Below are positions 1 to 25,299 of a stretch of 64,000 bases of DNA, one piece after another. The stretch lies in assembly GCA_012646185.1 (NCBI GenBank), contig GCA_012646185.1_4706.1; one strand, written 5' to 3'. Both the position numbers and the translations under genes were made by a program. The notes under the pieces are model-generated. The model was not told where the DNA came from. It ran no database searches and was given only the letters and a program-made list of their open reading frames with translations. This DNA comes from a phage. Numbering within the stretch: position 1 is the stretch's first letter; the number at the start of each line of letters is the position of its first letter.

Positions 1-1857
1 ACCACCGTAAGCTTCCAGAAGCTGGTTGACTGTTAGCTTATTAGTGTTGATTGAACCATTGACACCATCGATACCGATGCCTGCACCTGTGATGGATGTC
101 GCCGAAAGATCGATTGGTCCGGTTAACTTACCCCCGTTGATCGGTAACGCACCAACTTGCTCTGCGGTGTGTGTATGGTCAGCTAACGCCGCAAACGCCG
201 TGATAGACTTATATGTCGAATACGGCGTCATATACGCTGATTGGTTGGTGTTGTCAGCCGCTTCAGTATCGGTAGCGACATTAAAGTTCTGCACGTTGCT
301 GAGACCGACCTGCACCTTCGTTACTTCATGCGGGTTGTTCTTATTGACAACGTGTGCTGCAAAACCGTCACCGGCTAAAGCAGTGATTGCCGCTTTTGTC
401 GCAGCCGGTGTCATATAGCGGTTGGTTGCTTCACCCGTTTGCGCCTCTTCGTCGGAAGCAACAGGATAGTTCTCAACGCTCCCCAACCCAACCTGAGATT
501 TTGTTACTTGGTGTGGGTTTTCGGTATTCGCAATATGACTACTGAACCCTTGACCCGCCAGTTGCTCGATTGCGTAACGAACAAGTATTGGCGTCATGTA
601 CTTGTTGTTAACCTGACCATCGATAGCTTCTTGGGTGGTGGCAACCCCGAAGTTTTGCACGCTCCCCAACCCAACTTGCGCTTTCGTAACAGCGTGAGGG
701 TTATTGGTGTTACCGATGTGATCGGTAACCGTTGGGGTGATTAATCCTGCGATAGCGGCTGCCGTGGTCGCAGGGGTCATGTATTTATCGTTAGCAACAC
801 CCGCAGCAGCTTCTACGTTAGATGCTACACCGTAGTTCAATACATTTCCTAACCCAACTTGAGCCTTGGTTACCCCGTGGGGGTTGTTCCTGTCTCCGGT
901 ATGGGTTGTCAACGTAGCGTTGACATGATCGATACGCGTACTTAAGCCGTCGGTGATTGCTTTGATTGCGGCTCGTACACCCGCTGGTGTTGTGTACAGA
1001 TTGGTGGCCGTACCGGTAATGGTTGCATTACTATCGGCTGTACCGTAGTTCTCAACGTTTCCGAGTCCCACCTGGGCTTTCGTTACCTTGTGTGGGTTGT
1101 TATAGTTGCTGATGTGTGCAGCAGCACTATCACCACTCAGGTTAGCGATCATCTTACGCGTCATCGCCAACGTCATGTACAGATTTTCACCGATGGTTTC
1201 CAGATCGCTCTCGGTCGCCGTTGTGAAGTTCTGAACATTCCCCAAACCAACTTGTGCCTTGGTTACGCCATGTGGGTTATCGCGACGATTCTCGTGCTGC
1301 AGCAATGCGGTCATTGCTTTATTGAACCCTTCTTCAAGCGGTTCTTTCAATGATTCGATTGCAGCCACCACATCGTCCCACGTCATTGTGTCGGTTTCGA
1401 CATTATGTTGGTGGTTGATTGGCGGGAATACGGAAGGAACGTCAGCAACCTTTTCCCAGAACGTAACGCGGGGATCGTAAAGGTTGTTGGCTAAAACGTT
1501 AAGAATTTGTTGTTGATCAAGTGTAAACTCACCCCCCAGTGAATAGTAGTTCAGTTGCAACTGTCCACTGAATGCGGTGTCCAACAGCATGATGGAACCG
1601 TATAATTCCAGGCCGGTCAGCGCAGCCATGGCACGGAAGGGGTGAGTGCATAAAAAGTCAACGCCTTCTTCCAGATACGCGTTTGTTTCAGGGTTGTAGA
1701 TCTTTAACCCATTACGAAAATAGGGTGCGTATTTAGGAACGAGAAAGTTAAATCCGGTCCCCGTGGAAGGACGGACAGTGACGAGTTCTTCTGGAACCCA
1801 TGCGCCATCCAAATTCCCCTGCGGGTTATACGGAAGGCGTTTAATTTCATCTGTCAT
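1..1857 (-). CDS. tail fibre-like protein, partial (N-terminal ~619 aa; gene continues past window start)
   Basis: Hand translation of reverse strand from ATG at 1855-1857 gives MTDEIKRLPYNPQGNLDGAWVPEE...; frame checked open over several stretches toward position 1. Absent from ORF track because it runs off the edge. Six repeats of NNPHxVTKAQVGLGNVxN...YMTPA resemble the phage tail fibre repeat; HTHTAEQVG motif near the window edge. Confidence 0.75.
   Translation of the reverse strand, partial: MTDEIKRLPYNPQGNLDGAWVPEELVTVRPSTGTGFNFLVPKYAPYFRNGLKIYNPETNAYLEEGVDFLCTHPFRAMAALTGLELYGSIMLLDTAFSGQLQLNYYSLGGEFTLDQQQILNVLANNLYDPRVTFWEKVADVPSVFPPINHQHNVETDTMTWDDVVAAIESLKEPLEEGFNKAMTALLQHENRRDNPHGVTKAQVGLGNVQNFTTATESDLETIGENLYMTLAMTRKMIANLSGDSAAAHISNYNNPHKVTKAQVGLGNVENYGTADSNATITGTATNLYTTPAGVRAAIKAITDGLSTRIDHVNATLTTHTGDRNNPHGVTKAQVGLGNVLNYGVASNVEAAAGVANDKYMTPATTAAAIAGLITPTVTDHIGNTNNPHAVTKAQVGLGSVQNFGVATTQEAIDGQVNNKYMTPILVRYAIEQLAGQGFSSHIANTENPHQVTKSQVGLGSVENYPVASDEEAQTGEATNRYMTPAATKAAITALAGDGFAAHVVNKNNPHEVTKVQVGLSNVQNFNVATDTEAADNTNQSAYMTPYSTYKSITAFAALADHTHTAEQVGALPINGGKLTGPIDLSATSITGAGIGIDGVNGSINTNKLTVNQLLEAYGG
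286..1330 (-). repeat. six tandem in-frame repeats, period ~183 bp (213 bp for one unit), inside tail fibre gene
   Basis: Conserved cores start near 286, 469, 652, 835, 1048 and 1228 on the plus strand (gttctSMacg...ccMaacYtg...gttac...tgggtt). Confidence 0.8.
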
Positions 1858-1889
1858 GATGCGCCCTTTACAAGTTGTTAGTAAGTATG

Positions 1890-1907
1890 GGATACCCTGG
1901 GGTATCC
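1890..1907. promoter_or_regulatory. perfect inverted repeat GGATACCC-tg-GGGTATCC in divergent intergenic region
   Basis: Lies between the tail fibre start (1857) and the 1962 gene start; an ATATTAC motif sits about 30 nt upstream of the 1962 ATG. Regulatory role is inferred. Confidence 0.3.
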
Positions 1908-1961
1908 TGTGTTAACAGCGGTAAAATATTACTGTAACTATAAAATAAGGGGGCCTCTCCC

Positions 1962-3242
1962 ATGTATACATTGGTAAAAACTTACGGGTTACCCGTAGGT
2001 TCTGGCACGGCCTGGACAGCGCTTGAGGCGGGTGAAAGTGTCCTGAGTACGTTGTTCTCAACGTATCAAAAACTCAAGATCCAGGTCCATGAAAGCTATG
2101 CTGACCAGCAACAAGTTATTGATCTGTACGCGTTCCAATCCGAGCTTCAAAACAGTAGAGATACGCTTAATGCGTGGCTGAAGGCGAAATCGGATGCGCA
2201 TACCAACCTTCGAGGACAGCCTGGTGAACTGTCGATTAAAACCCACAAGCTTTATTGTCATGACGTTGTTACTGTAGGCTTTCTCCCTAAAGTCGGTAAT
2301 AGCGGTTATCATCCGAGCAACGCGATCCCTGAGTCGGAACGCACCGATATCCTGTTGACGAAAGCGAATACGAATTACGAAAATATCGGCAAACACTGCC
2401 TGTTCACCGTAGGTGGTTATGTTCATCCTCACGTCTACGGTAAAGACGTTGGTGTCTATATCCAGGGCGGGTTCAAGACGGCACAGCGTAGCCAAGAAAA
2501 CGATATCGGCATGATTGATTTTAGCCGTATCGGGAGTTTGGAAATCCATGCTATCACAGAAGAGATGATTGCTGATTCCACGAAGCTCTTGCCGTATAAG
2601 GACGAGATGTACTTGCGGTTACCGCGCAAGGTCGCCGAAGATGAAACCGTCGCGCTGGTGTTCGGGGGATATTTACATCTTCTTGACGATTGTTACACGA
2701 TCGTTAGTGACACGACAGCGAAAATAAACTGCATTAACATGTTTCTTTATGAAAGATACTTCCGTTCCCGCAAATACCTTGATCTAACATCTCTTGGTAT
2801 TCTGTTGAACGAAGAAGACCCACAGTCTGACATTGTTGCCAATCGTTTATTGTCGGATAAAGCATTAAAAGCGTGGGTGACGCATCCTTGCAGTTTCTGG
2901 GTGTATATCAAAGCAACATCGATTCAGGTTACGCAAGAACCCTTACCACGAAGTGGTGTACCAGGACAATATTTCTTAGGTAAGAAACCGGAAGGATTGA
3001 TTCGAGCTGATCTCGGCGAGTTACCGGCTTACGTGCAGACCTATGAAAAACCGTTATGGGTACTTCACTCGCGCTGGGGACTTCGTAAGAATATGTTGTT
3101 TGAAAATACGTTGTACAAACATACCCGCGTTAAGCGACTTAACGATACGCCTTATCTTCACCAGGTTTGGTTGGAAACGCATGCAACGTTGCAGACAGTA
3201 CACAAGCTCGAATTGATCGATTCCAGTCAGAAAAACAAATAA
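1962..3242 (+). CDS. hypothetical protein (426 aa)
   Basis: ATG start with GGGGG ribosome-binding site ~9 nt upstream; ends just before terminator hairpin. Confidence 0.85.
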   Translation: MYTLVKTYGLPVGSGTAWTALEAGESVLSTLFSTYQKLKIQVHESYADQQQVIDLYAFQSELQNSRDTLNAWLKAKSDAHTNLRGQPGELSIKTHKLYCHDVVTVGFLPKVGNSGYHPSNAIPESERTDILLTKANTNYENIGKHCLFTVGGYVHPHVYGKDVGVYIQGGFKTAQRSQENDIGMIDFSRIGSLEIHAITEEMIADSTKLLPYKDEMYLRLPRKVAEDETVALVFGGYLHLLDDCYTIVSDTTAKINCINMFLYERYFRSRKYLDLTSLGILLNEEDPQSDIVANRLLSDKALKAWVTHPCSFWVYIKATSIQVTQEPLPRSGVPGQYFLGKKPEGLIRADLGELPAYVQTYEKPLWVLHSRWGLRKNMLFENTLYKHTRVKRLNDTPYLHQVWLETHATLQTVHKLELIDSSQKNK

Positions 3243-3252
3243 CCAAACATAA

Positions 3253-3284
3253 CCCTCCTCCTTCCCTTACGGGTTGGAGGAGGG
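3253..3284. terminator. conserved terminator hairpin between convergent genes
   Basis: CCCTCCTCC-TT-CCC-TTAC-GGG-TT-GGAGGAGGG; U-rich tract follows on the minus-strand transcript. Confidence 0.7.
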
Positions 3285-3293
3285 CATATGCTG

Positions 3294-4199
3294 TTATGCT
3301 ACATATAACGTTAGATAACCATCGATGAGCGTATTCATCACACTGAGTTGGAGTACGACAGCTTTACTAACATCCGTACGTACACCGAACGGTAGTGTTT
3401 TGAATTGCTCTGGATCGGCTATTACTCTCGCGTTCTGCAAGTTGAGTGGTCCAGGCATTGACGACAATACCCAGCGATCGTTGACCATAAGGCCGTCGAT
3501 CTCTTCAGAGAGACCCAATTGCAGTGTGTTCATTTCTGCGATTAGTGCCTCCGATTGCGTATCGCCTGAGGTTAATGTGTACCCATCGGTAAGTGATGCC
3601 AGAACACCAGCAGATACGAACCAGTTGTACGAAACAATAGCGCCTGGGAGTTTACTGCTATCTCGATCGATGATATAATTCAACCCAGCCAACATATTGT
3701 TGCGAACGAGGTTGTTGAGGTCGTTATGTCCTGAGGTTAACTCAACAAGTAACTGACCAACCCATACTTGGTTACCAGGTTTAGGTGTTATCACAACCTG
3801 TATCGGTGACTTGGACTTATCCAGATCCGCGTCGACAATCTCGGTTTTGTTGAGAAGGATACCGTACGTCGATGCTAAGACAGGTAGGATCTCAGAGACC
3901 TTGGTTAATGCATCTAAGGTTTCGATCTCGATGGGCCAGTGGTGCTGTCCGCCAGGCCAAGTACCCAGTTTACCAAGATCGATGCGGTTATAATAGATGT
4001 CGACAGAGTTCACCAGCCCTGAACCCGGTTGGGGATGCACGGTTAACTTGCTGTTACGCTTGTACCCTGTGCTTTCAGAAGCCTCACCGATAACCAGTTT
4101 ATCCAGCGTTACGCCTCGAGCATCGAAATCGCTATGCTTTCGAATCAGCCGAAAGAGGATTTCTTTCGATTCTAACCCCAGGATTTCACTGTACTCCAT
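3294..4199 (-). CDS. hypothetical protein, paralog family A (301 aa)
   Basis: ATG at 4197-4199; shares IYYNRID, STYGILL and DRWVL motifs with the 5116 and 5978 genes. Confidence 0.85.
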   Translation of the reverse strand: MEYSEILGLESKEILFRLIRKHSDFDARGVTLDKLVIGEASESTGYKRNSKLTVHPQPGSGLVNSVDIYYNRIDLGKLGTWPGGQHHWPIEIETLDALTKVSEILPVLASTYGILLNKTEIVDADLDKSKSPIQVVITPKPGNQVWVGQLLVELTSGHNDLNNLVRNNMLAGLNYIIDRDSSKLPGAIVSYNWFVSAGVLASLTDGYTLTSGDTQSEALIAEMNTLQLGLSEEIDGLMVNDRWVLSSMPGPLNLQNARVIADPEQFKTLPFGVRTDVSKAVVLQLSVMNTLIDGYLTLYVA

Positions 4200-4214
4200 T
4201 TAACACCCCTTAGG

Positions 4215-5099
4215 TTACGGTAGGATTTCTGCGCCCGTCGGGCCTGCCTTACGAGCTTCCAACGCACCAAGGTCGTATTTCAGCGTCAGCGTATCGTTGG
4301 TGGTATAAAGGTTGTGGTAAGTCGAAATCAGATCGGTAACCTGCGCGCCGACGATTTCGTTCATGTCGAAGGCTGAACCTTGACCATCATCAGCACGAAC
4401 GATTTTATCGCCAGCAGAGACCATCCCAATTTCAGAAATAACCGCGTACTCTTCACCACCTTCGGTGAGTTTAGCTACATTGAGATATTCGTTAATATCC
4501 CACGGCGTCCAAACCAAAGAGACTTTACAGCTGTAGTCGTAGTACTCTCCGGTTGCTACCAGAATTCCGGTTGTTGGGATATCCGGTCGGGCAGGGTTGA
4601 GGTTCGCGTCGGTTGGGTGCCATTCGATGGTCTGAGCGACGCCGTCGACGTATTTGGTATAACGCATGGAGCGGACAACGTTATCGAAATCGATCCGGCG
4701 ACCGTAATAACAGATATACTTTTTACCGCTTTCCAGTGTCTCAATACGACGTAACCCAAATTTAGCGCGTTCGTCTGTGGTCAAATCGTTACCAACTTCA
4801 CGCATTACGAAAGGCTTGATTTTCCACGGTGAAAGATCGCTTGCTTCGTGAGCGATCGGCATCGAGGAAGGGATACCGTTAGCGTTGCGGATGAATTCAT
4901 GACCTTGGTTGCCGATACAGAAGTAACGTACAGCAGGATTACCCTCGGGGTAAACCTTTGATTGAATCTGAAGTTTTTCATTCAAGGTGCTGTGTTCTTC
5001 CCATGCATGAGGAAGACCGAGCGTAAGGTTAGTTTGTACTTGACCGCCGATAATCGTACGGACGATACGATCGGTAGCACGGATTTGTGTAGAAGCCAT
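4215..5099 (-). CDS. hypothetical protein (294 aa), possible distant member of paralog family A
   Basis: ATG at 5097-5099; contains YYGRRIDFD resembling the family YYxRI motif. Confidence 0.8.
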   Translation of the reverse strand: MASTQIRATDRIVRTIIGGQVQTNLTLGLPHAWEEHSTLNEKLQIQSKVYPEGNPAVRYFCIGNQGHEFIRNANGIPSSMPIAHEASDLSPWKIKPFVMREVGNDLTTDERAKFGLRRIETLESGKKYICYYGRRIDFDNVVRSMRYTKYVDGVAQTIEWHPTDANLNPARPDIPTTGILVATGEYYDYSCKVSLVWTPWDINEYLNVAKLTEGGEEYAVISEIGMVSAGDKIVRADDGQGSAFDMNEIVGAQVTDLISTYHNLYTTNDTLTLKYDLGALEARKAGPTGAEILP

Positions 5100-5115
5100 G
5101 TCTTTTCCTATTTAA

Positions 5116-5967
5116 TCAGTTATATTGCATCAACAGGATACCGCCGTAGTTCGTGCAGTAATCTTGGCTAAGCGTAACGATAACAGCGTTAGCGAACGCA
5201 GGGTTAACCGGATAACCCTGTGCGATAAGTTCTGTTGTTTTACCGGTTGCAAGCACGGTGGCTCCGTAAAGGTTGTTTTCGTCTTCACGGCCGTTATAAA
5301 CCCATGGGGTTGGCGCAACGTTGTTGAATAAGCTAACCATTGCGCTTAAATTACCGCCAACTTTTAACCCGGCGAGATCGGAACGGATAGCCGTACAGTC
5401 TATAGCGTAACTGTAGACCAGTGCCTGGATACGATTTGCGGTGTAGTACGGGAAATTGAGGCCGGTCATCACCGTGGACTTCATCATCCCCGCAACATCG
5501 TGGGCACTATCGAGGAGATAGAACGTAACACTTCCCGTCCAAGCCAATCCGGTTGTTTTCAACTCTACGGTGTGAGGGAACGGATATTCATCACCTCGTA
5601 CAATCGGAGAATCGACGCAGCTATCCTGATCGATAACGATTCCGTACGTTGATTGAATCAGAGGGATAAGATCGTGCGTCGTTTTAACCCCAGCATCGAT
5701 AGCAAGCTTCGGTTCCATTCCCAAGAAGAAGTCTTGGATAGGGATACGATCGTACCACACGTAGCTGCTTTCACGGTATTGTGCTGGTGTTACTGTTGCC
5801 GAAGGTGATACCTTAGCGCGTGTGTTCCGTTTATACGCGTGGTTTCCGTTTTCAGCAACATCCGTGATATCAAGTGCATCGAAGTTAAAGTCGAAGTCAG
5901 GATTGGCTGCCTGAATAAGTTCAGCGACCAGTACTTTAGGACTTTTGTTTAACAATTTCTGACTCAT
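5116..5967 (-). CDS. hypothetical protein, paralog family A (283 aa)
   Basis: ATG at 5965-5967 with AAGGAA ribosome-binding site; motifs VWYDRIP, STYGIVID, LAWTGSV, DYCTNYGGILLMQYN. Confidence 0.85.
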   Translation of the reverse strand: MSQKLLNKSPKVLVAELIQAANPDFDFNFDALDITDVAENGNHAYKRNTRAKVSPSATVTPAQYRESSYVWYDRIPIQDFFLGMEPKLAIDAGVKTTHDLIPLIQSTYGIVIDQDSCVDSPIVRGDEYPFPHTVELKTTGLAWTGSVTFYLLDSAHDVAGMMKSTVMTGLNFPYYTANRIQALVYSYAIDCTAIRSDLAGLKVGGNLSAMVSLFNNVAPTPWVYNGREDENNLYGATVLATGKTTELIAQGYPVNPAFANAVIVTLSQDYCTNYGGILLMQYN

Positions 5968-5977
5968 TGTTTATTCC

Positions 5978-6913
5978 TTAGCCTTGTTCTTCTGGAGAAC
6001 GACCCTGGAGGCTTGCGGTATGTCCGTCGACGTTGTAATAGAAAATCAATGGACCGCCGACGGCAGTACAGTAGTTTTCATCCAGACCGATCTCGATACC
6101 GTATTGGTAACCTGCTCGTGCTGGAATACGTCCGCCTAACTCGCCGTTGAAAGCCACTTTAGCGTTATACAGGTTATACGGTGCGATGTTGTCGTCTAAC
6201 ACCCAACGATCGGCGGTCATTTCAGCCAGAAGATCGGCGACCACCACATCGCTAATGACCGTACCTGTTACCAGCGAAGCTAGCAACTCACCGTAATCAG
6301 AAGTATCACGACTGTAACTGTAGATCTCACCGCTAGCGCGTACGCCCTGTCCGAAGAACTTAAGACCATCAAGCTCTTTGATCGCGATAATATCATCAAG
6401 ATTCGGTACACGCGACTTCATCAAGATACGAACACTTCCCGTCCAAGCCAGGCAGTTAGATGCGACACGAAGCAATTGTCCGTTAACGGTATCCCAGTTA
6501 AGTTCGTCGTTGACGATTTCCTCCGCGGTAAGGCCAAGACCGAAACGTTCTTTGATGATAGGCCAGATATCACGCATCTTGGTGGCGTCTGGCGCATCGA
6601 TAAGAATAGGCGCTACGTTACGCAGATACGCACCGATATTGATACGATCGTAATACAGCGTCGTCGAACCTTCGTAATCGTCTAACTCAGTAAGCTTAGC
6701 GGTTGCTGTCGCCGTAATCTGGGTGTCGCGCTCATAGGCGCTTTGGTTGGTGGTTGGTGTTCCTAAAACCAATAATTCAGGGGTTAGGATATGCTCTCCG
6801 TTCTGAGGTGGGTTATCGTGGTTGATAAGACCATACACGAGATCGGATGAGGGTAAAGAGACGTCGACCGGGTAAAGTTCGGTGTCGTCAATAGTTGTTA
6901 CCGTATCACTCAC
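5978..6913 (-). CDS. hypothetical protein, paralog family A (311 aa), GTG start
   Basis: GTG at 6911-6913 preceded by GAGGAGG with 5-nt spacer; motifs LYYDRIN, LAWTGSV, ADRWVL, ENYCTAVGGPLIFYYN. Confidence 0.85.
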   Translation of the reverse strand: MSDTVTTIDDTELYPVDVSLPSSDLVYGLINHDNPPQNGEHILTPELLVLGTPTTNQSAYERDTQITATATAKLTELDDYEGSTTLYYDRINIGAYLRNVAPILIDAPDATKMRDIWPIIKERFGLGLTAEEIVNDELNWDTVNGQLLRVASNCLAWTGSVRILMKSRVPNLDDIIAIKELDGLKFFGQGVRASGEIYSYSRDTSDYGELLASLVTGTVISDVVVADLLAEMTADRWVLDDNIAPYNLYNAKVAFNGELGGRIPARAGYQYGIEIGLDENYCTAVGGPLIFYYNVDGHTASLQGRSPEEQG

Positions 6914-6972
6914 GGTGACCTCCTCGCCGGGAATTAGATAAAAAAGACTTTACGATTTGCTGCGCTATCACG

Positions 6973-9384
6973 TTAAACGTCCTCGATAGGCAAAGGTTTA
7001 ACAATCAAACGATTGAGCGGATTCGATAGACGCATACTGATAGGCTTATACGCAGCATGATTCGTCTCACTTAGAGCCACTGATCTGAAACGACCGTTCA
7101 ACTGTTTGTAAATCGGTTCTATCCAGAGACCTCGAAGATCACGTTTACGGAAACGTTGTTCGAACGGTTTGATTGGGGTTACGGTTAACCCACGCAACGA
7201 CTCTGACGGCAGACGCTCACGAAGGTCGCGTGGTGCCCGACCTGGGAACGGTGCAAGCCACAACCCGTCAAGCGGATTTTTACGGAAACGTAACGAGACA
7301 GGATCACTAATGACTTGTGCCCAATATTGCGTACTGAATCGAACGGTTTGGGTATTCTCGTAACCGCTACAGTCACACCAGGTTGGTTTCGGAGGTGCTT
7401 CCAAACTTTCAACCGCTGATTCACGCCAGTTCGTCATCGGGTTGTTATCATGTACGAATTTGATAACTTCCGTAGCCTGGTTATCCGTATCATGAACGTT
7501 TGCCTGTGCCCAGTCTTCCCACAGTTCTTCACTACCACTTACTAAACTCGAACCAAGACGAACGGCGATTTTGTTTAGTGGTTTGATTGGATCACTGTTG
7601 ATTGTCTGGATAAAATGGATGGTGTAACTGCTCAATGTCTTAAGCAGCTGCAGCATTCCGTATTGAATATCCTTAAGACTGGTGACATCTTCCAAATCTT
7701 GACCGGTGGCCTTTGTGAAGATATCGAGAGCCAGAATTCCCGCCTCTTCTTGACTGATTGCGTCAAGCTCCCAATCCATCGCTAAGAACCATTCCTTGTA
7801 AAGCTGCCCAATACCGAAGTCGACACCAACATCCATGTAAAAGTTTTCAACGATTGCTTCAGCCATACCTCGAGCTTGATAATGCTCTTGGAGCTGGTAC
7901 ATGAACTGATGACGACGCCAGCCCTGGTAGATCTCGGTAACGGCGGTCAGAAACTCTTCAGTACTGACGACCGGACGCAATGTTACTTGCTTATCCAAAC
8001 ACCACCAGATCAGTTTATCGGGAATGATAGCAGGATCGGTAATGCTACGGAGATGGTCGAATGTCGGTAGCGTTAACACCCTGACGTGGTTAGCATGGAT
8101 CTTAGGTACTTCAATCAGCGTCATGCCCATCGAATAGTTCAGCAAATACAAGAACAGCTTGTAGGCATCTTTCATCGACATCGTCATGGTATCACCCGTC
8201 ACCGGGTTGGTTGTCGTTAACCGTGACTGATACATGCCTATCGCGCTAAGATGAATCCATTCGTTCAGCAGGAAATCATACTTAGGATACAGTTCACTGT
8301 CTGTAAGGTCTTCGGCTTCACTTTCCAACACCTTGGTCGTTAAGGTATTGTTGTCGTGCATCGACATCTTCTCTATCGTGCGGTTAAGCTCGGTATAATA
8401 CTCCGCTTCGTTATCCCGCGCTAGAGGGAACTGTTGTTGCATCACGGTAGTGACCTTACGTCTTACCGTGCCATTACCGACGATCTCTTGAAGGTTAAGC
8501 GGTTTACGCTCCATGTAAACAGCAGGTTTTAACGTCTGGGGTATCTCGGAAGCGTCTTGTTTGATCGAGAACGCACCGATTGGAATCCCACGATCGGTTA
8601 ATACCTTTTGAATGAGCTTATCGTAGTTTTCCGTTCTGCCCATGTTTCTTTCAACGTAAGCGATGTTACGATAGAACCAGAGCATTTGGGATTCGGTCAT
8701 GTATCGCTTGAATCGATCAAGACCTTGATGACTTGCCAGATAACTCCAGATATGGAAGCTATGGGCATAATGGGTATGACAGTTTTCCCAACGAATACCT
8801 TTTATCATCTCAGGTATTTGTGTGAATAGGATGGCGTATAGCGCAGGCCAATGAAGCATATCGACGCTCTCGTATGCCGGATGTTCCCAGCGTCTGAAGT
8901 AATCGTCGATTTCTTGCTGTAAACGTGGAATAAGATTGGCCTCGCGCGACTCAACCTCTTGTGTATCGTACCAGAGAATCTCATGATTGCGTGCCGCAAT
9001 TGCTTTCTCGATATCGATGGGGTTAAGGATACCCAAGATCAACATACGTTGTTCCGGGTACCGCGCAATTAAACGATTGAAATAATCTCCACCATACGCG
9101 TATTCCCTTGCCGTCATGCGATGCCGTAACATGTTTTCCTTAGTGAACTCGATCTCTTCGAGCGTATCCAGGGAATTTACGGTCATCATTGTCTGACAAG
9201 GATGATACTCGCCAGCGAGATTCATGTAGTATAACCACGTGCGTGGGTCGTCCCCGACGGCCATCTGGTAGACTTCGGAAACCTTGAGGTTTAACCGTTC
9301 TGCCGTGATGTCGCTTTTAATAATCAGGGTGTCCGTTAGACGCTGCACGCTTTCCGAATAAAGCTGATAGTCAGTGTTGGACAC
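6973..9384 (-). CDS. hypothetical large protein (~803 aa), start moved to GTG at 9382-9384
   Basis: Track start is TTG at 9453; the in-frame GTG at 9384 has a GGAGGA ribosome-binding site 7 nt upstream and avoids overlap with the divergent 9412 gene. C-terminus carries three short RFRKxxLxGLWxxP repeats. Confidence 0.75.
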   Translation of the reverse strand: MSNTDYQLYSESVQRLTDTLIIKSDITAERLNLKVSEVYQMAVGDDPRTWLYYMNLAGEYHPCQTMMTVNSLDTLEEIEFTKENMLRHRMTAREYAYGGDYFNRLIARYPEQRMLILGILNPIDIEKAIAARNHEILWYDTQEVESREANLIPRLQQEIDDYFRRWEHPAYESVDMLHWPALYAILFTQIPEMIKGIRWENCHTHYAHSFHIWSYLASHQGLDRFKRYMTESQMLWFYRNIAYVERNMGRTENYDKLIQKVLTDRGIPIGAFSIKQDASEIPQTLKPAVYMERKPLNLQEIVGNGTVRRKVTTVMQQQFPLARDNEAEYYTELNRTIEKMSMHDNNTLTTKVLESEAEDLTDSELYPKYDFLLNEWIHLSAIGMYQSRLTTTNPVTGDTMTMSMKDAYKLFLYLLNYSMGMTLIEVPKIHANHVRVLTLPTFDHLRSITDPAIIPDKLIWWCLDKQVTLRPVVSTEEFLTAVTEIYQGWRRHQFMYQLQEHYQARGMAEAIVENFYMDVGVDFGIGQLYKEWFLAMDWELDAISQEEAGILALDIFTKATGQDLEDVTSLKDIQYGMLQLLKTLSSYTIHFIQTINSDPIKPLNKIAVRLGSSLVSGSEELWEDWAQANVHDTDNQATEVIKFVHDNNPMTNWRESAVESLEAPPKPTWCDCSGYENTQTVRFSTQYWAQVISDPVSLRFRKNPLDGLWLAPFPGRAPRDLRERLPSESLRGLTVTPIKPFEQRFRKRDLRGLWIEPIYKQLNGRFRSVALSETNHAAYKPISMRLSNPLNRLIVKPLPIEDV

Positions 9385-9411
9385 GATCGGTCCTCCAAGG
9401 AGCCAGTGTAA

Positions 9412-12321
9412 ATGAACGATATAAATAAAGGGCGCGTCGCCCTCGAACGTCAAATGAGCAATAATGACGTTGCGAAGGCACTCATGAACAAATTTGTCGC
9501 TCCTGCTCCGCAGTCACGTCTTTATAATACACGTGATGCGGAAGGAGCGAACGGTCGTTTCGGGTTAGTTGTTCCCGACCAAATGACGATGAACACGGTT
9601 ACGCGTGCGACCGCGACAAACATCGAGGATAATAAAAACATCCTCGAGTTGTTCCCTGAACTTAAACGCGTGATGCAGATCTATGTTGCCGCGTTGACGA
9701 ACCCTAACGATCTTAAGACGGTCGAGATGTTTATCGACAGCGAAGATTTCCCCGGCAGAGTCGCAGAAATCGTTCAGCCGATGATCGATACCATCGACAC
9801 GCATTTTAAGAATATCTATAAAATAAAGACGCTTATCCCTCGTATCATCGAAGACGTCTTCTTTATCAAGGGCAGTTATAACTTCGTTGTTCTGCCAGAA
9901 AGCACGCTCGACCGCGCGATTAATGGTAACGGTCAACTGAAACTTGAAGAATACGGATTTAAAGACAACCATTTTGCAAGTTGGGGGCTTCTAGGTAACG
10001 ACAGTCGCAAACGCCACGAAAATCAATTACCCGCGACGGTTTCGATGGAAGATTATTTCTCGGGTGTTAATGAAACCATACCGTACGATCCTGTTGTTCG
10101 CATAGACAGCATTAAGTTTACCAATACCCTGCTTCGCGATAAGGACGGTAAATTCATTGAAGCGAAGATCGATATTCCGGATATGGTTACGGTTGTCGAT
10201 AACCCAGACATCCTCCGCATGCCCATTCTGCATCAACGTCGAGCAGCGACAGCAGTGCAGCGTGCGTTACGCGCAAACACGTTAGGAGGTAGTGGTTTGG
10301 TAACGCTGTCAGGCGATCCGACCCTAACCGCTAACCGACGCGAGCTAACGCAAGAACAGGTTAACGAGATCTGGAATAAGCTCAACATCCAACGTCACAC
10401 TAAGGTATCTCCCGTTTACGCGTTGGCGACTCCAGATACGCTTGATCGTCAAAGCGTCGGTCATCCTGGTGTGATGCACGTACCACCTGAGGCATTAGAA
10501 CCCGTACATGCGCCCGGTGATCCTGAGAACCATATCGGGTATTTGGTTCAGTTGGATGAGTTTGGTTATCCGGTGCGTTTGGTTGAAGATGCTGCATATT
10601 ACAAGCAGTTGGAAGGTCGGTTGTCGAAGATCACTGCAGATATCGCAGGCACGTCAAGCAACGGCATGGCGAGCGAGATGATTGGTGCGGCCAAGAACAT
10701 GATCCAAGGTACGTCATGTAATCAGGTAGACATGTCGGCCTTCGTATCGTCGTACGAATCGCTGATGCAACGTTACATCGTTGAACGTATTGTCAACGGT
10801 TATCTTGGCAGTGCGGTGGAGATCGGTGCGACATCATCGTTTTACCTATCGATGCTTGCCCGTAGCCTCGCTCACAAGCAGACCCGTGTTTTGTTTATTC
10901 CTCGAGAGATGGTGACTTACATCGCCTATGAATACAACAAATACGGTATCGGTCGTTCGCTGCTTGAAAGTACGAAGATGATCTCGTCGCAACGAGCCAT
11001 GCTCATGGTTCAAGAACTAATGGCGAAAATCAAAAGTTCGTTGAACTATACGACGTTAAGCGTAATGCTTGAAGACACCGACAGAAACCCGGTCGATACC
11101 GTCGAACAAGCACTGCATAGTTTCGCTCGTGTCTACCAGTCTGGTTTCCCGTTGGGTGAAACTAACCCGATGGATATCATCAACGCGTACGAACGAAGCT
11201 CGATTCGATTGAAGGTTGAGGGGAATAACCCACGCTTCCCGAAATTGAATACAGACGTCAGCGTTGAGCAGCGTAACTATCAGTCTCCTGATAATGAGCT
11301 GATGGATCGTTACCGTCGTGACCATTTCATGGGCTTGGGTGTGTCTCCGGAGATTATCGATACTTCCTACCAATCTGAATTCGCAGCTTCTGTGATTACA
11401 GCTAACGCGATGCAAGAGAAACAGTTCACGGTTTGTCGTGAGGTGATCACGAATGGATTATCGGACCACATCAAGAAATATACGGCATACAGTCCCGTGT
11501 TGTTGACGTCGTTACGAAACACGGTTCGTGCGAACATGTCTAAGCTCTCCCAGGCACAATTGAAGCAGCTTTTTGGTAGCGATTTCGAAAACGGTGTTAT
11601 CCGTAACGTTAACGCCTATCAGGAGATTGACGACCAATCAGCAACAATGGATCTGGATTACACTAAACCAGAAGTCCAGGAAGTTATTGCCGATGCTTAT
11701 GTGTCCATGTTCTTAAACAGCCTGCGTGTGCGTTTACCAGATAGCAATGCTCGTCGCCTTGAAGATCAGGTACGTGAATATAATCAGTACAAGGAAGCGA
11801 TTACTGCGCAACTTGATGATTATTTAACGCCTGATTACGTCATGGGTCTGGGTGGGGTTGATGAAACAACGCTGCAGATGATCCGCGCATGCATTATTGG
11901 TACCGCGATGCGTACGTGGGCAAAAGAGAACAACTTCAATCAGGAGCTGGCTGATCTCTTCAGTCTTGACGATAAGAAGAATGCCGTGCAAGATTGGAAA
12001 CGTATGTCCATGGAACATATTGAAGTCATGGGTAAATGCATGGGTGATTTTGCATTGTATATTCAGAATCTGACGAAGAAGATTGAAGAGAAGATGGGAG
12101 CTCAAGCACAGGACGGCAGCGTTTCATCTGACGGTTCGTGGTCATCCGATTCAAGTAGCGATACCGGTTCTTCTGATGACTTCGGTGGCGGTGACGATTT
12201 CGGAGATACTGATTTCGATACCGAAACGATGGAGGAAACCTCAACAGAAGAAACAACCACATCTGAGGATACGACGACCGACACAACGTCAGAAGACGAT
12301 ACTTCAGGTGGCGTTGTCTAA
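9412..12321 (+). CDS. large virion-type protein (969 aa) with acidic S/T/D-rich C-terminal tail; possibly portal (weak guess)
   Basis: ATG with AAGGAG ribosome-binding site 9 nt upstream; C-terminal ~70 aa low-complexity acidic tail; A-run and terminator hairpin downstream. Confidence 0.8.
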   Translation: MNDINKGRVALERQMSNNDVAKALMNKFVAPAPQSRLYNTRDAEGANGRFGLVVPDQMTMNTVTRATATNIEDNKNILELFPELKRVMQIYVAALTNPNDLKTVEMFIDSEDFPGRVAEIVQPMIDTIDTHFKNIYKIKTLIPRIIEDVFFIKGSYNFVVLPESTLDRAINGNGQLKLEEYGFKDNHFASWGLLGNDSRKRHENQLPATVSMEDYFSGVNETIPYDPVVRIDSIKFTNTLLRDKDGKFIEAKIDIPDMVTVVDNPDILRMPILHQRRAATAVQRALRANTLGGSGLVTLSGDPTLTANRRELTQEQVNEIWNKLNIQRHTKVSPVYALATPDTLDRQSVGHPGVMHVPPEALEPVHAPGDPENHIGYLVQLDEFGYPVRLVEDAAYYKQLEGRLSKITADIAGTSSNGMASEMIGAAKNMIQGTSCNQVDMSAFVSSYESLMQRYIVERIVNGYLGSAVEIGATSSFYLSMLARSLAHKQTRVLFIPREMVTYIAYEYNKYGIGRSLLESTKMISSQRAMLMVQELMAKIKSSLNYTTLSVMLEDTDRNPVDTVEQALHSFARVYQSGFPLGETNPMDIINAYERSSIRLKVEGNNPRFPKLNTDVSVEQRNYQSPDNELMDRYRRDHFMGLGVSPEIIDTSYQSEFAASVITANAMQEKQFTVCREVITNGLSDHIKKYTAYSPVLLTSLRNTVRANMSKLSQAQLKQLFGSDFENGVIRNVNAYQEIDDQSATMDLDYTKPEVQEVIADAYVSMFLNSLRVRLPDSNARRLEDQVREYNQYKEAITAQLDDYLTPDYVMGLGGVDETTLQMIRACIIGTAMRTWAKENNFNQELADLFSLDDKKNAVQDWKRMSMEHIEVMGKCMGDFALYIQNLTKKIEEKMGAQAQDGSVSSDGSWSSDSSSDTGSSDDFGGGDDFGDTDFDTETMEETSTEETTTSEDTTTDTTSEDDTSGGVV

Positions 12322-12355
12322 ACGGACGTAAAAAAAAAAAATAACACATAGTTAA

Positions 12356-12389
12356 CCTTCTCCCCTTCCCTTACGGGTTGGGGAGAAGG
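12356..12389. terminator. conserved terminator hairpin
   Basis: CCTTCTCCCC-TT-CCC-TTAC-GGG-TT-GGGGAGAAGG; A12 run at ~12330-12341 gives a U-run after the hairpin on minus-strand transcripts. Confidence 0.75.
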
Positions 12390-12406
12390 GCTATGCGCTA
12401 TTTAAC

Positions 12407-12682
12407 TTATCTCGAGGTTAACCACGATTCAATTGTGGTGAGGTTGCTTCGCAATACGCGCCAACTAGGGTGTGGTGGGATCACAGCACCTTGGTCGATT
12501 ACGGTTAGCTGAGCCTGGTACTTCTGTTTCATACGGGCTACCGTAGCGTTTACCGAAAGGAAAAGCTGGTAACGTTCGTACGCCGTCAGTACAGCATCCA
12601 TTTGGATTGCTTCGGTTGCTAAAACGATTTCGCGTAAGTCCTTTGCGTCCATCGGGACAGTAATGAGTTTATAATGACTCAT
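12407..12682 (-). CDS. hypothetical small protein (91 aa)
   Basis: ATG at 12680-12682 with AAGGAA ribosome-binding site; terminator immediately downstream. Confidence 0.7.
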   Translation of the reverse strand: MSHYKLITVPMDAKDLREIVLATEAIQMDAVLTAYERYQLFLSVNATVARMKQKYQAQLTVIDQGAVIPPHPSWRVLRSNLTTIESWLTSR

Positions 12683-12731
12683 AGGGTTTCCTTATCAACC
12701 AGGGTATCGCGTTAACAATACCCATCGTCAA

Positions 12732-15269
12732 TTACTGCTCTTCACGTTCCAGCAGATACTCGGAAGCGGTAATACCGTTTACCGTACGTACTGCTTTCAG
12801 ACGAGTATCATCGCTCAGAATTACAGTAACAGATTGCAGACCTTTTACTTTGGTTTCGAAGGTCTTGAACACCTGATCCAGCATACGAGCAATGCTTGGG
12901 TTGGTTGCAGCAGATGCGTGAGTGTAACCGCTCTGGTTCAGCTTCAGAATCTTGGCGTTGGTCGGTACGCGAACAACAACATGCGGACGCATCGCGAACA
13001 CGCTGTGATTGAACCAGTAAGCATCGTTGCTATCTTCGTCGGTAACGATGTCTGGATTAACACGCATATCCTCGATAGCCGCATCCGCCAAACGACGTTC
13101 GATTTCGTCAGCATCCAGAGAACCATCTTTCTCCAGTTCTGCACGATACTCACTCATGGCAACCAGATGACGTTCACGATTCGCTGCGGATTTTTCGTGA
13201 GCGGCTTTCAGGTAGTCATGCATGTTGTACAGTTCTGCCATGGAAAGACGAATGTTCCACTGACCTTCGCCGTCACGATTGCAGTAGAGACACTTCAGCA
13301 TGTTGACCCAGGTATAGTAGCAATTGGAGAATTCATCTTCAATGAACTTCTGGTCCATTTTAAGATCGTGAATCAGCCAACCGGACAGTTCTCCGATATC
13401 ATCAACGAAGCTAGAGATGGTGGTTTCAGAGAAGTTCTTCGGTACGATACGTTTGATCAGCTTGTTAACGTCTTTGGTCATGCTATCATTCAGGAAATGC
13501 CAGATACGCAGAGGAATGACATCTCGATACTGTTGCATGATCTGACGATAAGCTTTGATATCGTCGCTACGACCTTTATCAATAGACAACGCATCCAGGA
13601 ATTCATGGATTGCATCCAGCTCTTTGTCGGTATAGGTTCCCAGATAGGAATTGACGGTGGCCAGGAATGCTAATGCGTCGTTTTGGTTGACGTCGGTGTT
13701 GGTCTGCTGAATGATCGCTACTGAAGCTTTGGTTTCAGCATCCTCAACGCTTGACGCTGCGATCGCGTCGGTGACGGTAAACAGTTTCATTTCGCGCTGC
13801 TCACCGACAACGATTGGCTCACGCTGAACCGGCTTGTTAAGACTAACACGAACAACTTCTGCTTGCGCGATACGATCCAGTTTTGCCATTTCCTGCTCTG
13901 CCATACGACGAGCGGTTGGATCTGATTCAAGTTCGATGTATTCCACTTCTTCCTCCGTGAGGGATGTAATGTCAACAATGGTTTCATGAAGAATTCCGTT
14001 TTCGTCGATACGTGCTCGACGAGCGAAGTGCCTGAAGTCATACAACGTCGGCCAACGACTATTAGGTGCAAAGTCTTTGGCTTTCAGACGCATCTGCATA
14101 AATTCTTCATGTTGAACAACACGACCGTAACGCTTAGCATCTTCGGTCGCATCAATTGGATTAACGGTCTTTGTTGCCGTAGCGGAACGAGCCGTACGAA
14201 CCGGTTCAGGTTGAACGGGTTTCTGCTGCCCAGCCTTAACATGCCATTCTGGCTCTTCGTACTGCTCAGCAAATTGCTCAGCGGCTGCAAAGATATCGTT
14301 GATACCACCAATATCTCCTTCAGGATTTGTCGAGTAAATCCGTGGTTGTGGTGCCTCGTAACGCGGCGCTGTAGCAGCAGGTGCGTCATCAACGATAGGA
14401 TCGTCATCACCAACATCATACAAACGGTTGAACGCACAATCCTTCGAATCAATGTACGATGGCGTTTGTGGTTGGACAACCGTCGGCCGAGGTTGTGTGC
14501 CGTATCCTGGTGTTGTTGGAGCCATACCACGCATAACTGCTGGGTTAGGTTGGTATTGTGGTTGCGGGTAGGTTCCACCATACATGGCGTACGCAGGCTG
14601 TTGCGGTTGACCATACCCGTTGCTAACCATCGCACTTGCTTGCGGACCACGATAAGTCATCCCCATCTGCATCACCTGCTGCTTCAAACCACGTGACTTC
14701 TGAGCGATTTGCGCTAGGCTTCCGCTTTTATTCAGCTGCGTGTACTTGTTCGCGGCTTCCGGGTTAATGCGTGATAATTCAATCGCGCGATAATATTCCG
14801 GGTACTGATTCGGTTCAAAGAGCCACGTTACAAGATGATACAGCGCAACTGTGCTCACAGCAGCAGAGACGATCTGGTCGTCGGACGCGTTCTGTGGCAT
14901 CGGGTTGATGTAAGAGAACACGTTCCAACAACAGTCTTCAACAAGCGATTCCATCATCATATCGTTATTGGTATAACGTGCGACGAACTCGGTTTGTATT
15001 TTGTCTTGCTGAGCGAAGTCTTTCAGGACATTAAAGATGGCTTGACGGATTTTGACGATCGTCGCTTCTTGGGTGATGAAGTTATAGTTCTGCTGATATG
15101 AGGGTTGTTGGTATTGTGGTGGTTGATAGGCGTTATTCGGGTATGCGCCGTACGGCGATTGCTGATACTGTTGCTGACGAACCCGTTCAGCCGCATAATT
15201 AACCGTGCTCGTATAGGGGTTTTCGCTATAGCCCATTTGTTGATACATGTTGTTACTGCCATTATACAT
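12732..15269 (-). CDS. hypothetical protein (845 aa) with two Q/Y/P-rich low-complexity regions
   Basis: ATG at 15267-15269 with AAAGGA ribosome-binding site; N-terminal ~65 aa and residues ~190-270 are Q/Y/P/G-rich. Confidence 0.85.
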   Translation of the reverse strand: MYNGSNNMYQQMGYSENPYTSTVNYAAERVRQQQYQQSPYGAYPNNAYQPPQYQQPSYQQNYNFITQEATIVKIRQAIFNVLKDFAQQDKIQTEFVARYTNNDMMMESLVEDCCWNVFSYINPMPQNASDDQIVSAAVSTVALYHLVTWLFEPNQYPEYYRAIELSRINPEAANKYTQLNKSGSLAQIAQKSRGLKQQVMQMGMTYRGPQASAMVSNGYGQPQQPAYAMYGGTYPQPQYQPNPAVMRGMAPTTPGYGTQPRPTVVQPQTPSYIDSKDCAFNRLYDVGDDDPIVDDAPAATAPRYEAPQPRIYSTNPEGDIGGINDIFAAAEQFAEQYEEPEWHVKAGQQKPVQPEPVRTARSATATKTVNPIDATEDAKRYGRVVQHEEFMQMRLKAKDFAPNSRWPTLYDFRHFARRARIDENGILHETIVDITSLTEEEVEYIELESDPTARRMAEQEMAKLDRIAQAEVVRVSLNKPVQREPIVVGEQREMKLFTVTDAIAASSVEDAETKASVAIIQQTNTDVNQNDALAFLATVNSYLGTYTDKELDAIHEFLDALSIDKGRSDDIKAYRQIMQQYRDVIPLRIWHFLNDSMTKDVNKLIKRIVPKNFSETTISSFVDDIGELSGWLIHDLKMDQKFIEDEFSNCYYTWVNMLKCLYCNRDGEGQWNIRLSMAELYNMHDYLKAAHEKSAANRERHLVAMSEYRAELEKDGSLDADEIERRLADAAIEDMRVNPDIVTDEDSNDAYWFNHSVFAMRPHVVVRVPTNAKILKLNQSGYTHASAATNPSIARMLDQVFKTFETKVKGLQSVTVILSDDTRLKAVRTVNGITASEYLLEREEQ

Positions 15270-18814: not shown

Positions 18815-18913
18815 CTGACTTATGTATCACGGTGCCGGATGAATGTCCGGTGCAATGAAACCATCCGCAACGTTGTCGTCAAGAATATCGTCCAACGAAG
18901 CAGCTACGGTAGT

Positions 18914-25267: not shown

Positions 25268-25299
25268 CCCTCTCCCAACCCATCAGGGAAGGGAGAGGG
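25268..25299 (-). terminator. conserved terminator hairpin
   Basis: CCCTCTCCC-AA-CCC-ATCA-GGG-AA-GGGAGAGGG directly after the stop of the 25304 gene. Confidence 0.7.

Follow-up and report, generated by a model that had tools for sequence, protein, structure and literature searches.

Three ancient DUF7941 virion-protein paralogs in the peripheral-baseplate gene cluster of a Goslar-like jumbo phage

The window that we analysed, a stretch of 64,000 nucleotides of phage DNA (assembly GCA_012646185.1, contig GCA_012646185.1_4706.1), is collinear with the genome of the nucleus-forming jumbo phage Escherichia phage Goslar, with a nucleotide identity of 97.2-97.5% by megablast and blastn. An apparent indel of ~5.4 kb relative to Goslar was discarded as an artefact, as the megablast row had fused two pieces, and blastn returned a single collinear alignment of 13 kb; direct blastn also gave paralogous fibre-repeat matches to Goslar gp25. 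The region under study is the peripheral-baseplate cassette of a Goslar-like chimallivirus, and comprises the genes for the fibre, the fibre platform, three likely adaptors of the DUF7941 family, a DUF7208 spoke, the wedge and the portal (Table 1).

Table 1. Genes and features of the peripheral-baseplate region
Feature	Coordinates	Strand	Evidence and remarks
Tail-fibre protein, N-terminal 619 aa	1..1857	-	Goslar gp29 orthologue, phiKZ gp131-like; C-terminus beyond window
Goslar gp30 orthologue, phiKZ gp130 homologue	1962..3242	+	PDB 9xqd_L (PHIKZ130), E 1.5e-23 (phmmer)
Hairpin, 14-nt arms, 4-nt loop	3253..3284		Inverted-repeat search; between convergent gp30 and gp31 genes
DUF7941 paralog 1, Goslar gp31 orthologue, 301 aa	3294..4199	-	PF25613, E 8.5e-56
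DUF7208 baseplate spoke protein, Goslar gp32 / phiKZ gp139 homologue	4215..5099	-	PF23838, E 1.8e-96
DUF7941 paralog 2, Goslar gp33 orthologue, 283 aa	5116..5967	-	PF25613, E 5.8e-47
DUF7941 paralog 3, Goslar gp34 orthologue, 311 aa, GTG start	5978..6913	-	PF25613, E 9.7e-63
Baseplate wedge protein, Goslar gp35 / phiKZ gp128 homologue	6973..9384	-	Opens minus-strand string
Portal protein, Goslar gp36 / phiKZ gp129 homologue	9412..12321	+	Divergent from wedge gene; conserved cassette end

No Pfam family was found for the fibre fragment, and its homology to phiKZ gp131 came from BLASTP (31% identity over 339 aa, E 2e-43); it contains repeated NPHxVTKAQVGLGNV units and is collinear with Goslar gp29. 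The product of the adjacent plus-strand gene shares 99.1% amino-acid identity with Goslar gp30, and its phiKZ homologue gp130 links the star lobes, with the fibres attached underneath it (PMC13250141). The wedge protein matches PDB chains 11lx_Bh (E 0) and 9xqs_C (PHIKZ128, E 5.6e-111), with 99.4% identity to Goslar gp35, and the portal protein matches 11ed_J ('Portal Protein gp36', E 0) and 9xpe_M (PHIKZ129, E 3e-76). The hairpin is likely the terminator of the minus-strand gp35-gp31 gene string, and the Goslar annotation has a terminator at the corresponding place; a consensus terminator scan did not report it because it lacks a clean T-run. A sigma-70 promoter scan gave four sites versus 10.5 expected, which is of no diagnostic value in a phage that has RNA polymerases of its own.

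A first-pass annotation, made from the letters alone, had called an array of three minus-strand genes of 283-311 aa starting at 3294, 5116 and 5978, with coordinates that proved exact, and had placed it next to the tail-fibre gene. The latter is approximately right, but the plus-strand gene and the hairpin lie in between, and it is the wedge gene whose orientation the array shares and which it closely follows. All three genes are closely spaced on the same strand as those of the wedge (gp35) and the DUF7208 spoke (gp32).

The mutual similarity of the three genes, on which the same annotation had staked its claim of paralogy, is significant in all pairwise BLASTP comparisons, with E-values of 8e-11 (24% identity over 181 aa), 4e-13 (26% over 274 aa) and 1e-19 (26% over 247 aa). 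Each product also matches Pfam family PF25613 (DUF7941) from profile position 2-3 to 274-275 of 276, with scores of 189.9 (gp31), 160.9 (gp33) and 212.6 bits (gp34) against a gathering cut-off of 27. The motifs by which the array had been recognized, namely, YYxRI, (S)TYG(I/L), LAWxGS and DxWV, coincide with positions that rank among the most conserved of a 115-sequence family alignment (Y88, R90, G125, W157, G159 and W237 in gp34 numbering). Judged from their sequences, the three genes are thus true paralogs of the DUF7941 family. That unrelated genes merely share short motifs by chance, for which the low pairwise identity of 24-26% might speak, is practically negligible in view of the pairwise E-values down to 1e-19, the full-length Pfam matches down to 1e-63 and the same two-domain fold predicted for gp33 and gp34.

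DUF7941 is identical to 'paralog family B' of phage SPN3US, and we confirmed that SPN3US gp83 and gp138-145 belong to PF25613. Divergence within the family defeats 5-mer seeding, which explains why a word-indexed protein search returned only six matches with gp34 as the query and eight with a 16-sequence alignment, whereas an exhaustive HMM search returned 2182 representatives of 50%-identity clusters; these are metagenomic and carry no taxonomy. A tblastn search gave 124 phage records; among the matches listed, the genomes are all 197-304 kb, and the hosts are Erwinia, Salmonella, Serratia, Klebsiella, Vibrio and similar genera. One match of the word-indexed protein search is annotated in a Stenotrophomonas genome (P0076), and may be a prophage or contamination.

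On the other hand, the gene at 4215-5099, suggested earlier to be a diverged fourth member on account of its YYGRRID motif, does not belong to the array. BLASTP comparisons of its product with each of the three DUF7941 proteins gave E-values of 0.41, 11 and 1.3, and hhalign assigned a homology probability of 2.5% to a 16-sequence DUF7941 profile and a 26-sequence DUF7208 profile. Its only Pfam match is DUF7208 (323 bits), and it aligns with PDB chain 11lx_Aa over residues 1-294 (E 2.8e-201) and with 9xpg_A (PHIKZ139, E 3e-42). The product is almost the same as chain 11lx_Aa, from which it differs by two substitutions visible in the alignment. The likeness of YYGRRID to YYDRI is superficial, as the motif is conserved within DUF7208 itself. 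The gene therefore encodes a DUF7208 spoke protein that is unrelated to its neighbours, and the structure of this spoke protein has already been solved.

The AF2 models of gp34 (pLDDT 72.7) and gp33 (pLDDT 73.6) have the same two-domain fold, with an N-terminal domain (NTD; residues 13-172 in gp34 and 1-154 in gp33), a linker of low confidence (173-199, with pLDDT below 50, and 155-183, respectively) and a C-terminal domain (CTD; 200-297 and 184-283). This is the NTD-linker-CTD layout described for Goslar gp22, which gp31 probably shares in view of its full-length Pfam match. Across 115 homologues, the conservation of the linker equals that of the domains (L172, L181, Y198 and D203), with an occupancy of ~100%; such conservation despite low confidence in the monomer agrees with a segment that takes up its fold upon contact with a partner. 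The folds of both models match phiKZ gp127 specifically, their only structural match (top Foldseek match of gp33: 9xqd_0, E 1.3e-7), and the predicted NTD has the fold of the experimentally built NTD of phiKZ gp127. The independent evidence for the relation to PHIKZ127 consists of a single-sequence match (E 0.0014) and these fold matches; the profile match of E 6.6e-74 (profile A2) is not independent, because the profile contains that sequence.

The three proteins are highly similar to their Goslar counterparts, with amino-acid identities of 98.3% (gp31), 98.2% (gp33) and 98.7% (gp34). The dN/dS ratio relative to Goslar is 0.079 for gp31 and 0.087 and 0.115 for the other two paralogs, while it is 0.005-0.13 for most structural genes, 0.50 for gp64 and 0.41 for gp37. 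Identities of 65% (gp34) and 57% (gp33) are retained in a relative at greater distance, in which the portal has 67% and the wedge 63%. The genes are therefore under purifying rather than diversifying selection, contrary to what had been proposed for them. Moreover, the gene order of wedge, DUF7941, DUF7941, DUF7208 and DUF7941 is identical in Erwinia phage Deimos-Minion of another genus, where gp34 and gp33 have gp8 (133 bits) and gp9 (77 bits), respectively, as reciprocal best matches; the orthology of gp31 with Deimos-Minion gp11 (37 bits) is ambiguous. Goslar, Deimos-Minion and SPN3US (gp81-84) all have a cassette that runs from the portal gene through those of the wedge and DUF7941 to DUF7208, and phiKZ has the order gp129-126 with gp139 relocated. 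The tandem duplication inferred earlier is thus real as paralogy but not recent, the copies sharing only ~25% identity and gp33 and gp34 having position-specific orthologues in the Erwinia phage; the duplication is old, and the three paralogs are ancient and non-redundant.

The direct orthologues Goslar gp31, gp33 and gp34 (YP_009820716, YP_009820718 and YP_009820719) have the same lengths and gene order and were detected in virions; the window genes differ from them by few substitutions and come from a different isolate. In Goslar virion mass spectrometry (Table S4), gp31, gp33 and gp34 were represented by 7, 13 and 11 peptides, with widely differing estimates of ~8, ~112 and ~27 copies per virion, respectively, in line with non-redundant paralogs. 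All three are already listed as DUF7941 proteins in a Goslar preprint (bioRxiv 10.64898/2026.04.21.720040), which contains no separate analysis of them, their synteny or selection. The same module is present in Goslar gp22 and gp23 (PF25613, E 7e-20, for gp23), encoded upstream of the fibre cluster and outside the window, but these occur at ~580 and ~2140 copies per virion versus ~8-112 for the array proteins, and gp23 lacks the CTD that the full-length array proteins have. Purified gp22 forms filaments in vitro, the one member for which this has been shown, and the preprint proposes baseplate-anchored filaments making up a host-finding "fibre cloud" (bioRxiv 10.64898/2026.04.21.720040).

As to phiKZ, gp127 (with gp126; PDB 9xqd chain 0) shares 14-18% identity with the window proteins. 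Its locus has one full-length and one NTD-only copy, in contrast to three full-length copies here, and its DUF7208 gene (gp139) is ~15 kb distant, whereas that of the window lies within the array. The phiKZ gp139 band runs from the wedge gp128 to gp127, which was built at the band end in outer-baseplate density, in the fibre-carrying region (PMC13250141), and is the one family member present in a solved structure. This, together with the place of the window genes among those for the peripheral baseplate and the fibre, is in favour of the fibre-associated setting that the first-pass annotation had suggested. In the Goslar preprint, a gp126-gp127 heterodimer is fitted at the band end, and no DUF7941 density is reported in its 7.9 A map of the peripheral baseplate (bioRxiv 10.64898/2026.04.21.720040). 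None of the Goslar PDB entries, among them those of the capsid, vertex and portal, contains a DUF7941 chain. A baseplate position in the present phage is thus drawn by analogy with a single phiKZ protein. A phage TnSeq preprint reports no insertions in phiKZ gp128 and does not mention gp126 or gp127; it describes gp143, which tolerates insertions, as a lysis regulator.

The evidence from SPN3US points elsewhere. Its paralog family B (gps 83, 138-154, 160/161 and 237), of which gp83 and gp138-145 match the same Pfam family, consists of virion proteins with very unequal copy numbers, and papers of 2016, 2017 and 2023 placed it in the head (PMC5105663, PMC5694885 and PMC10052503); two further SPN3US papers (PMC7411985 and PMC7552025) contain nothing specific on it. 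In heads of a tail-tube amber mutant purified by step and buoyant-density CsCl gradients, gp83, gp138-154 and gp160 were found at 1.1-1.67 times the wild-type normalised PSMs. All detected proteins with a family B annotation were retained on these tailless heads, including the wedge-adjacent gp83, while wedge, spoke, sheath and fibre proteins were lost (≤0.06), among them the wedge protein gp82 (0.018) and gp84 of the DUF7208 family (0.056). Most members thus stay on particles without a baseplate. However, gp237, listed in family B by the 2017 paper, behaved as a tail protein (0.06), suggesting that the location may differ between members. The gp83 gene occupies the same wedge-adjacent slot as the window genes and is followed by the DUF7208 gene gp84, but most of the ~20 members form a separate tandem array, and their retention on tailless heads conflicts with a purely baseplate location.

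Taken together, we consider it probable that these ancient, non-redundant virion-protein paralogs sit at the outer tip of the gp32 spoke as structural adaptors. By analogy with phiKZ gp127, gp31, gp33 and gp34 would be low-to-medium-copy adaptors of the peripheral baseplate. [quoted passage not shown] The SPN3US assignments, the retention on tailless heads at 1.1-1.67 times wild type and the Goslar cryo-EM maps without DUF7941 density at the baseplate would instead agree with the three proteins being associated with the head, either at the surface of the capsid or the neck or as part of the packaged contents, in which case the proximity of their genes to those of the wedge and the spoke would result from shared late expression rather than contact. 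We regard this as possible, if somewhat unlikely, as gp33 and gp34 share the fold of gp127 in the phiKZ outer baseplate, gp237 is lost with the tail, the Goslar capsid, vertex and portal models are likewise without a DUF7941 chain, and the low copy numbers of gp31 (~8) and gp34 (~27) are near multiples of six. In a more specific version of the adaptor reading, which we hold to be doubtful, the three would be position-specific adaptors with a fixed stoichiometry of ~6, ~24 and ~100 per virion, capping each gp32 spoke and nucleating a mixed DUF7941 polymer composed chiefly of gp22 and gp23, and the family would have two attachment sites, one at the baseplate and one at the head or neck. The phiKZ cryo-EM finding of gp127 at the spoke tip and the SPN3US family on tailless heads would thereby be reconciled.

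Recently expanded, diversifying accessory proteins, associated with the fibre or binding receptors, or else fibre chaperones, in either case tuning the host range, were suggested by the position of the array less than 1.5 kb from a gp131-like fibre gene. Such a role would also be in line with the size of the family, which is large and fast-evolving overall (2182 cluster representatives) and ranges from three members in phiKZ to ~20 in SPN3US, and with the Goslar DUF7941 proteins gp86, gp92 and gp161, encoded outside the window, which carry carbohydrate-binding, glycosidase or LRR domains (bioRxiv 10.64898/2026.04.21.720040). For the three genes of the array, we consider it highly improbable. 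Each consists of the DUF7941 module only (profile coverage 3-275 of 276), Pfam having revealed no further domain with a binding or enzymatic function, and nothing marks them as receptor-binding proteins themselves. Their dN/dS ratios of 0.08-0.12 and amino-acid identities of 98.2-98.7% to Goslar, a divergence that matches the portal and the wedge when compared with a relative of ~65% identity, and the gene order and positional orthologues kept across genera all argue against diversification, and variable genes are located elsewhere in the genome, for instance at 47532-51137 (66% identity to Goslar gp64). Fibre chaperones and accessory proteins would be expected directly downstream of the fibre gene, co-oriented with it and usually absent from virions. 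Here, the array is upstream of the fibre gene and separated from it by the plus-strand gp30 gene and the terminator hairpin, and the three genes are on the strand of the wedge gene; in addition, as their Goslar orthologues are virion components detected with 7-13 peptides each, the proteins are hardly assembly-only chaperones.

These paralogs are therefore real but already known, as DUF7941 in the 2026 Goslar preprint and as 'paralog family B' in the SPN3US work of 2016-2023, and beyond linking the phiKZ/Goslar and SPN3US evidence the region holds no new biology. The Goslar preprint never mentions SPN3US, and the two literatures are unconnected. What is of wider interest is the site and role of DUF7941 in the virion, since the family accounts for thousands of copies per Goslar particle and ~20 SPN3US genes, and one group describes a "fibre cloud" at the baseplate while the data of another point to the head. 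Since the three low-copy members keep a conserved place between the genes of the wedge and the spoke, they are the best candidates for the anchoring members of the family.

Positions 1-12500 of the window match Escherichia phage vB_EcoM_Goslar, a nucleus-forming jumbo phage of the Chimalliviridae, at 97.5% identity (megablast), and a direct blastn comparison aligned positions 2-12998 with ~24495-37501 of the Goslar record in a single collinear alignment at 97.2% identity. A joined hit in the first megablast was misleading, as it was produced by a cross-match at the DNA level between the truncated fibre gene at the start of the window and gp25, a second Goslar fibre gene. We named the window genes after their orthologues in the Goslar RefSeq annotation. 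The five minus-strand genes from gp35 to gp31 are separated by gaps of only 59, 10, 16 and 15 nt, and downstream of them lies a hairpin (14-bp arms) that the Goslar annotation marks as a terminator. The fibre gene is phiKZ gp131-like (E 2e-43, 31% identity over 339 aa). Its repeats, at least six in tandem and each ~60 aa long, carry the motif NPHxVTKAQVGLGNVxN(Y/F); the observations on these repeats and on the gp25 cross-match refer to window positions 1-1857 and to 2372-4420 in the Goslar locus, L001.

Features of the window, with names following Goslar
Feature	Coordinates	Strand	Basis
gp29 orthologue, N-terminal 619 aa (fibre)	1-1857	-	Goslar RefSeq
gp30 orthologue	1962-3242	+	Goslar RefSeq; phiKZ gp130 homologue, E 1.5e-23
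Hairpin	3253-3284		
gp31 orthologue, DUF7941	3294-4199	-	Goslar RefSeq
gp32 orthologue, DUF7208	4215-5099	-	Goslar RefSeq
gp33 orthologue, DUF7941	5116-5967	-	Goslar RefSeq
gp34 orthologue, DUF7941	5978-6913	-	Goslar RefSeq
gp35, baseplate wedge protein	6973-9384	-	11lx_Bh; phiKZ gp128, E 5.6e-111
gp36, portal	9412-12321	+	11ed_J 'Portal Protein gp36'; phiKZ gp129
gp37 counterpart, 91 aa	12407-12682	-	
766-aa ORF	18839-21139	+	
Major capsid protein gene, 740 aa	18914-21136	-	
Hypervariable patch, gp64 counterpart	47532-51137	-	
Hypervariable patch	51219-54011	-	
Hypervariable patch	54482-55792	-	
HNH_3 + NUMOD1 homing-endonuclease gene	57607-58743	+	

The three ORFs that the first-pass annotation had described as paralogs (gp31, gp33 and gp34) are present with the coordinates and lengths claimed for them. 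BLASTP aligned gp31 with gp33 at E 8e-11 (24% identity over 181 aa), gp31 with gp34 at E 4e-13 (26% over 274 aa), and gp33 with gp34 at E 1e-19 (26% over 247 aa). All three match DUF7941 (PF25613; E 8.5e-56, 5.8e-47 and 9.7e-63 for gp31, gp33 and gp34) over essentially the entire 276-position profile, as well as PHROG 1037, 'virion structural protein'. In a 115-member alignment, the strongest conservation includes Y88, R90, G125, W157, G159, Y198, W237, G257 and G287 (gp34 numbering), and the shared motifs noticed earlier coincide with several of these top-conserved positions. The paralogy is thus real, far beyond chance. The feature is already known, because the near-identical Goslar genes have been described and the family has its own Pfam entry: the Goslar preprint names gp31, gp33, gp34, gp22, gp23, gp86, gp91-93 and gp161 as DUF7941 (10.64898/2026.04.21.720040). 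At E <=1e-3, an exhaustive HMM search recovered 2182 cluster representatives (clustering at 50% identity), mostly 270-300 aa long, some with fused long C-terminal extensions, and tblastn located the family in 124 phage records, at up to eight places per genome.

The suggestion that gp32 might be a fourth, diverged member failed every test. BLASTP against the three paralogs gave E-values of 0.41, 11 and 1.3, and its sole Pfam match is DUF7208 (PF23838, E 1.8e-96). When DUF7941 and DUF7208 alignments (16 and 26 sequences, respectively) were compared profile to profile, the probability was 2.5%, the single aligned stretch being the YYxR(I)D motif on which the suggestion had drawn. The solved Goslar structures 11lx, 11pb and 36za contain a chain nearly identical to gp32 (E 2.8e-201), and phiKZ gp139 is a homologue of gp32 (9xpg_A, E 3e-42).

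In phiKZ, five gp139 dimers form a band running from the wedge gp128 across the outer baseplate to gp127, the star lobes are linked by gp130, and gp131-type fibres attach beneath gp130 (PMC13250141); in the Goslar preprint, this spoke is likewise modelled with gp32 dimers, beside gp35 (10.64898/2026.04.21.720040). Therefore, this region of the window is a peripheral-baseplate gene cluster, and the earlier reading was correct in so far as the array lies in fibre and baseplate territory.

The same gene order is found in Erwinia phage Deimos-Minion (genus Agricanvirus), namely, gp6 (a large, divergent gene occupying the place of the portal), gp7 (wedge), gp8 and gp9 (DUF7941), gp10 (DUF7208) and gp11 (DUF7941). 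Reciprocal best hits pair gp34 with gp8 (133 bits) and gp33 with gp9 (77 bits), while the pairing of gp31 with gp11 is ambiguous (37 bits). The SPN3US cassette comprises portal gp81, wedge gp82 (29% identity, E 1e-64), a DUF7941 protein reduced to the N-terminal domain (gp83) and the DUF7208 protein gp84, and that of phiKZ comprises gp129, gp128, gp127 and gp126, with gp139 displaced. The copies are therefore older than the split of these genera, at odds with a recent duplication. Nor do the three genes diversify: they are 98.2-98.7% identical to Goslar at the protein level, with dN/dS of 0.079, 0.087 and 0.115 (gp32, 0.072; wedge, 0.028). In a metagenomic relative, identity is 65% for gp34 and 57% for gp33, against 67%, 63% and 75% for the portal, the wedge and the spoke N-terminus, respectively. 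Rates of this kind are usual among structural genes.

Higher values occur elsewhere. In a hypervariable patch, set in a genome otherwise 96-100% identical to Goslar in protein sequence, the gp64 counterpart (1201 aa, 930 aa in Goslar) is only 66% identical with dN/dS 0.50, and the gp65 and gp67 counterparts are 85% and 92% identical; neither of the gp64 and gp65 counterparts has a Pfam match. These genes are better host-range or diversifying candidates than the DUF7941 array. The gp37 counterpart, flanked by highly conserved structural genes, is only 80% identical (dN/dS 0.41) and also lacks a Pfam match.

AlphaFold2 models resting on shallow alignments of 8-9 sequences gave two domains joined by a linker, of low confidence in gp34, both in gp34 (13-172 and 200-297, linker 173-199; mean pLDDT 72.7) and in gp33 (1-154 and 184-283, linker 155-183; 73.6). 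Their only significant PDB match is 9xqd chain 0, phiKZ gp127 with its N-terminal 150 residues built (Foldseek E 7.3e-7 and 1.3e-7, probability 1.00, TM-score on the target 0.68 and 0.65, for gp34 and gp33, respectively); no DUF7208 chain is among the structural matches listed for gp34, and gp33 reaches PHIKZ127 from sequence alone (E 0.0014). Rather than a variable spacer, the linker is a conserved segment, with full column occupancy in the 115-member alignment and conservation close to that of the domains (block information 1.3-1.8 bits, versus 0.9-2.0 elsewhere). Such conservation would be expected if the segment folds against a partner, in agreement with the preprint's AlphaFold3 models, where one protomer's linker and C-terminal domain dock onto the next protomer's N-terminal domain (10.64898/2026.04.21.720040).

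The remaining interest lies in the location and function of the family. The Goslar preprint estimates >2500 DUF7941 copies per virion, mostly gp23 (~2140) and gp22 (~580), reports filaments of purified gp22, fits the phiKZ gp126-gp127 heterodimer into unassigned outer-baseplate density, and proposes host finding by a baseplate-anchored 'DUF7941 fibre cloud'; its Table S4 gives ~8 copies of gp31 (5.6-13), ~27 of gp34 (18-43), ~112 of gp33 (75-176) and ~179 of gp32 (10.64898/2026.04.21.720040). However, DUF7941 is also 'paralog family B' of Salmonella phage SPN3US (we confirmed gp83 and gp138-145 as PF25613), described long before, in 2016-2023 (PMC5105663, PMC5694885, PMC10052503), first with 17 members (gp138-154) and later with 20, and considered possibly the largest set of paralogs in any phage (PMC5105663, PMC5694885). 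In normalised PSM ratios of purified tailless heads (tail-tube amber mutant) to wild type, family B proteins gp83, gp138-154 and gp160 score 1.1-1.67, gp82 0.018, gp84 0.056, the sheath 0.027, and gp237, a member by the 2017 listing, 0.06 (PMC10052503 Table S2). Neither literature cites the other, and their conclusions on location are opposite, head for SPN3US and baseplate for Goslar; the Goslar preprint mentions neither SPN3US nor tailless particles.

Given this retention in tailless heads, direct support for a baseplate location of the family comes from a single phiKZ protein, and for most SPN3US members the data contradict it. Head association of gp31, gp33 and gp34 is a serious, though less likely, rival. 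We favour, with moderate confidence, a baseplate role at the spoke tip for these three, because their genes are tightly linked to those of the wedge and spoke, they match the fold of phiKZ gp127 specifically, and they occur in low numbers per virion that lie close to multiples of six. The receptor-binding role first proposed for them is, in our judgement, wrong.

phiKZ gp143 (27694-28227 in locus L006) matches DUF7941 weakly and over no more than the N-terminal domain (E 0.0017, below the gathering score); it adjoins endolysin gp144, as Goslar gp23 (772-1314 in L001) adjoins endolysin gp24. A phiKZ TnSeq preprint relays from another preprint that gp143 is a lysis regulator, and finds that it tolerates transposon insertions; this is hard to square with its counterpart gp23 ranking in the top two unmodelled virion proteins by abundance. 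The 766-aa ORF lies fully antisense to the major capsid protein gene and is presumably spurious, a shadow ORF; Goslar RefSeq has no plus-strand gene annotated at this position. The homing-endonuclease gene downstream of the DNA polymerase gene is only ~64% identical to Goslar gp69, in a comparison whose extrapolated frame is broken, and probably represents an alternative endonuclease allele occupying the same site.
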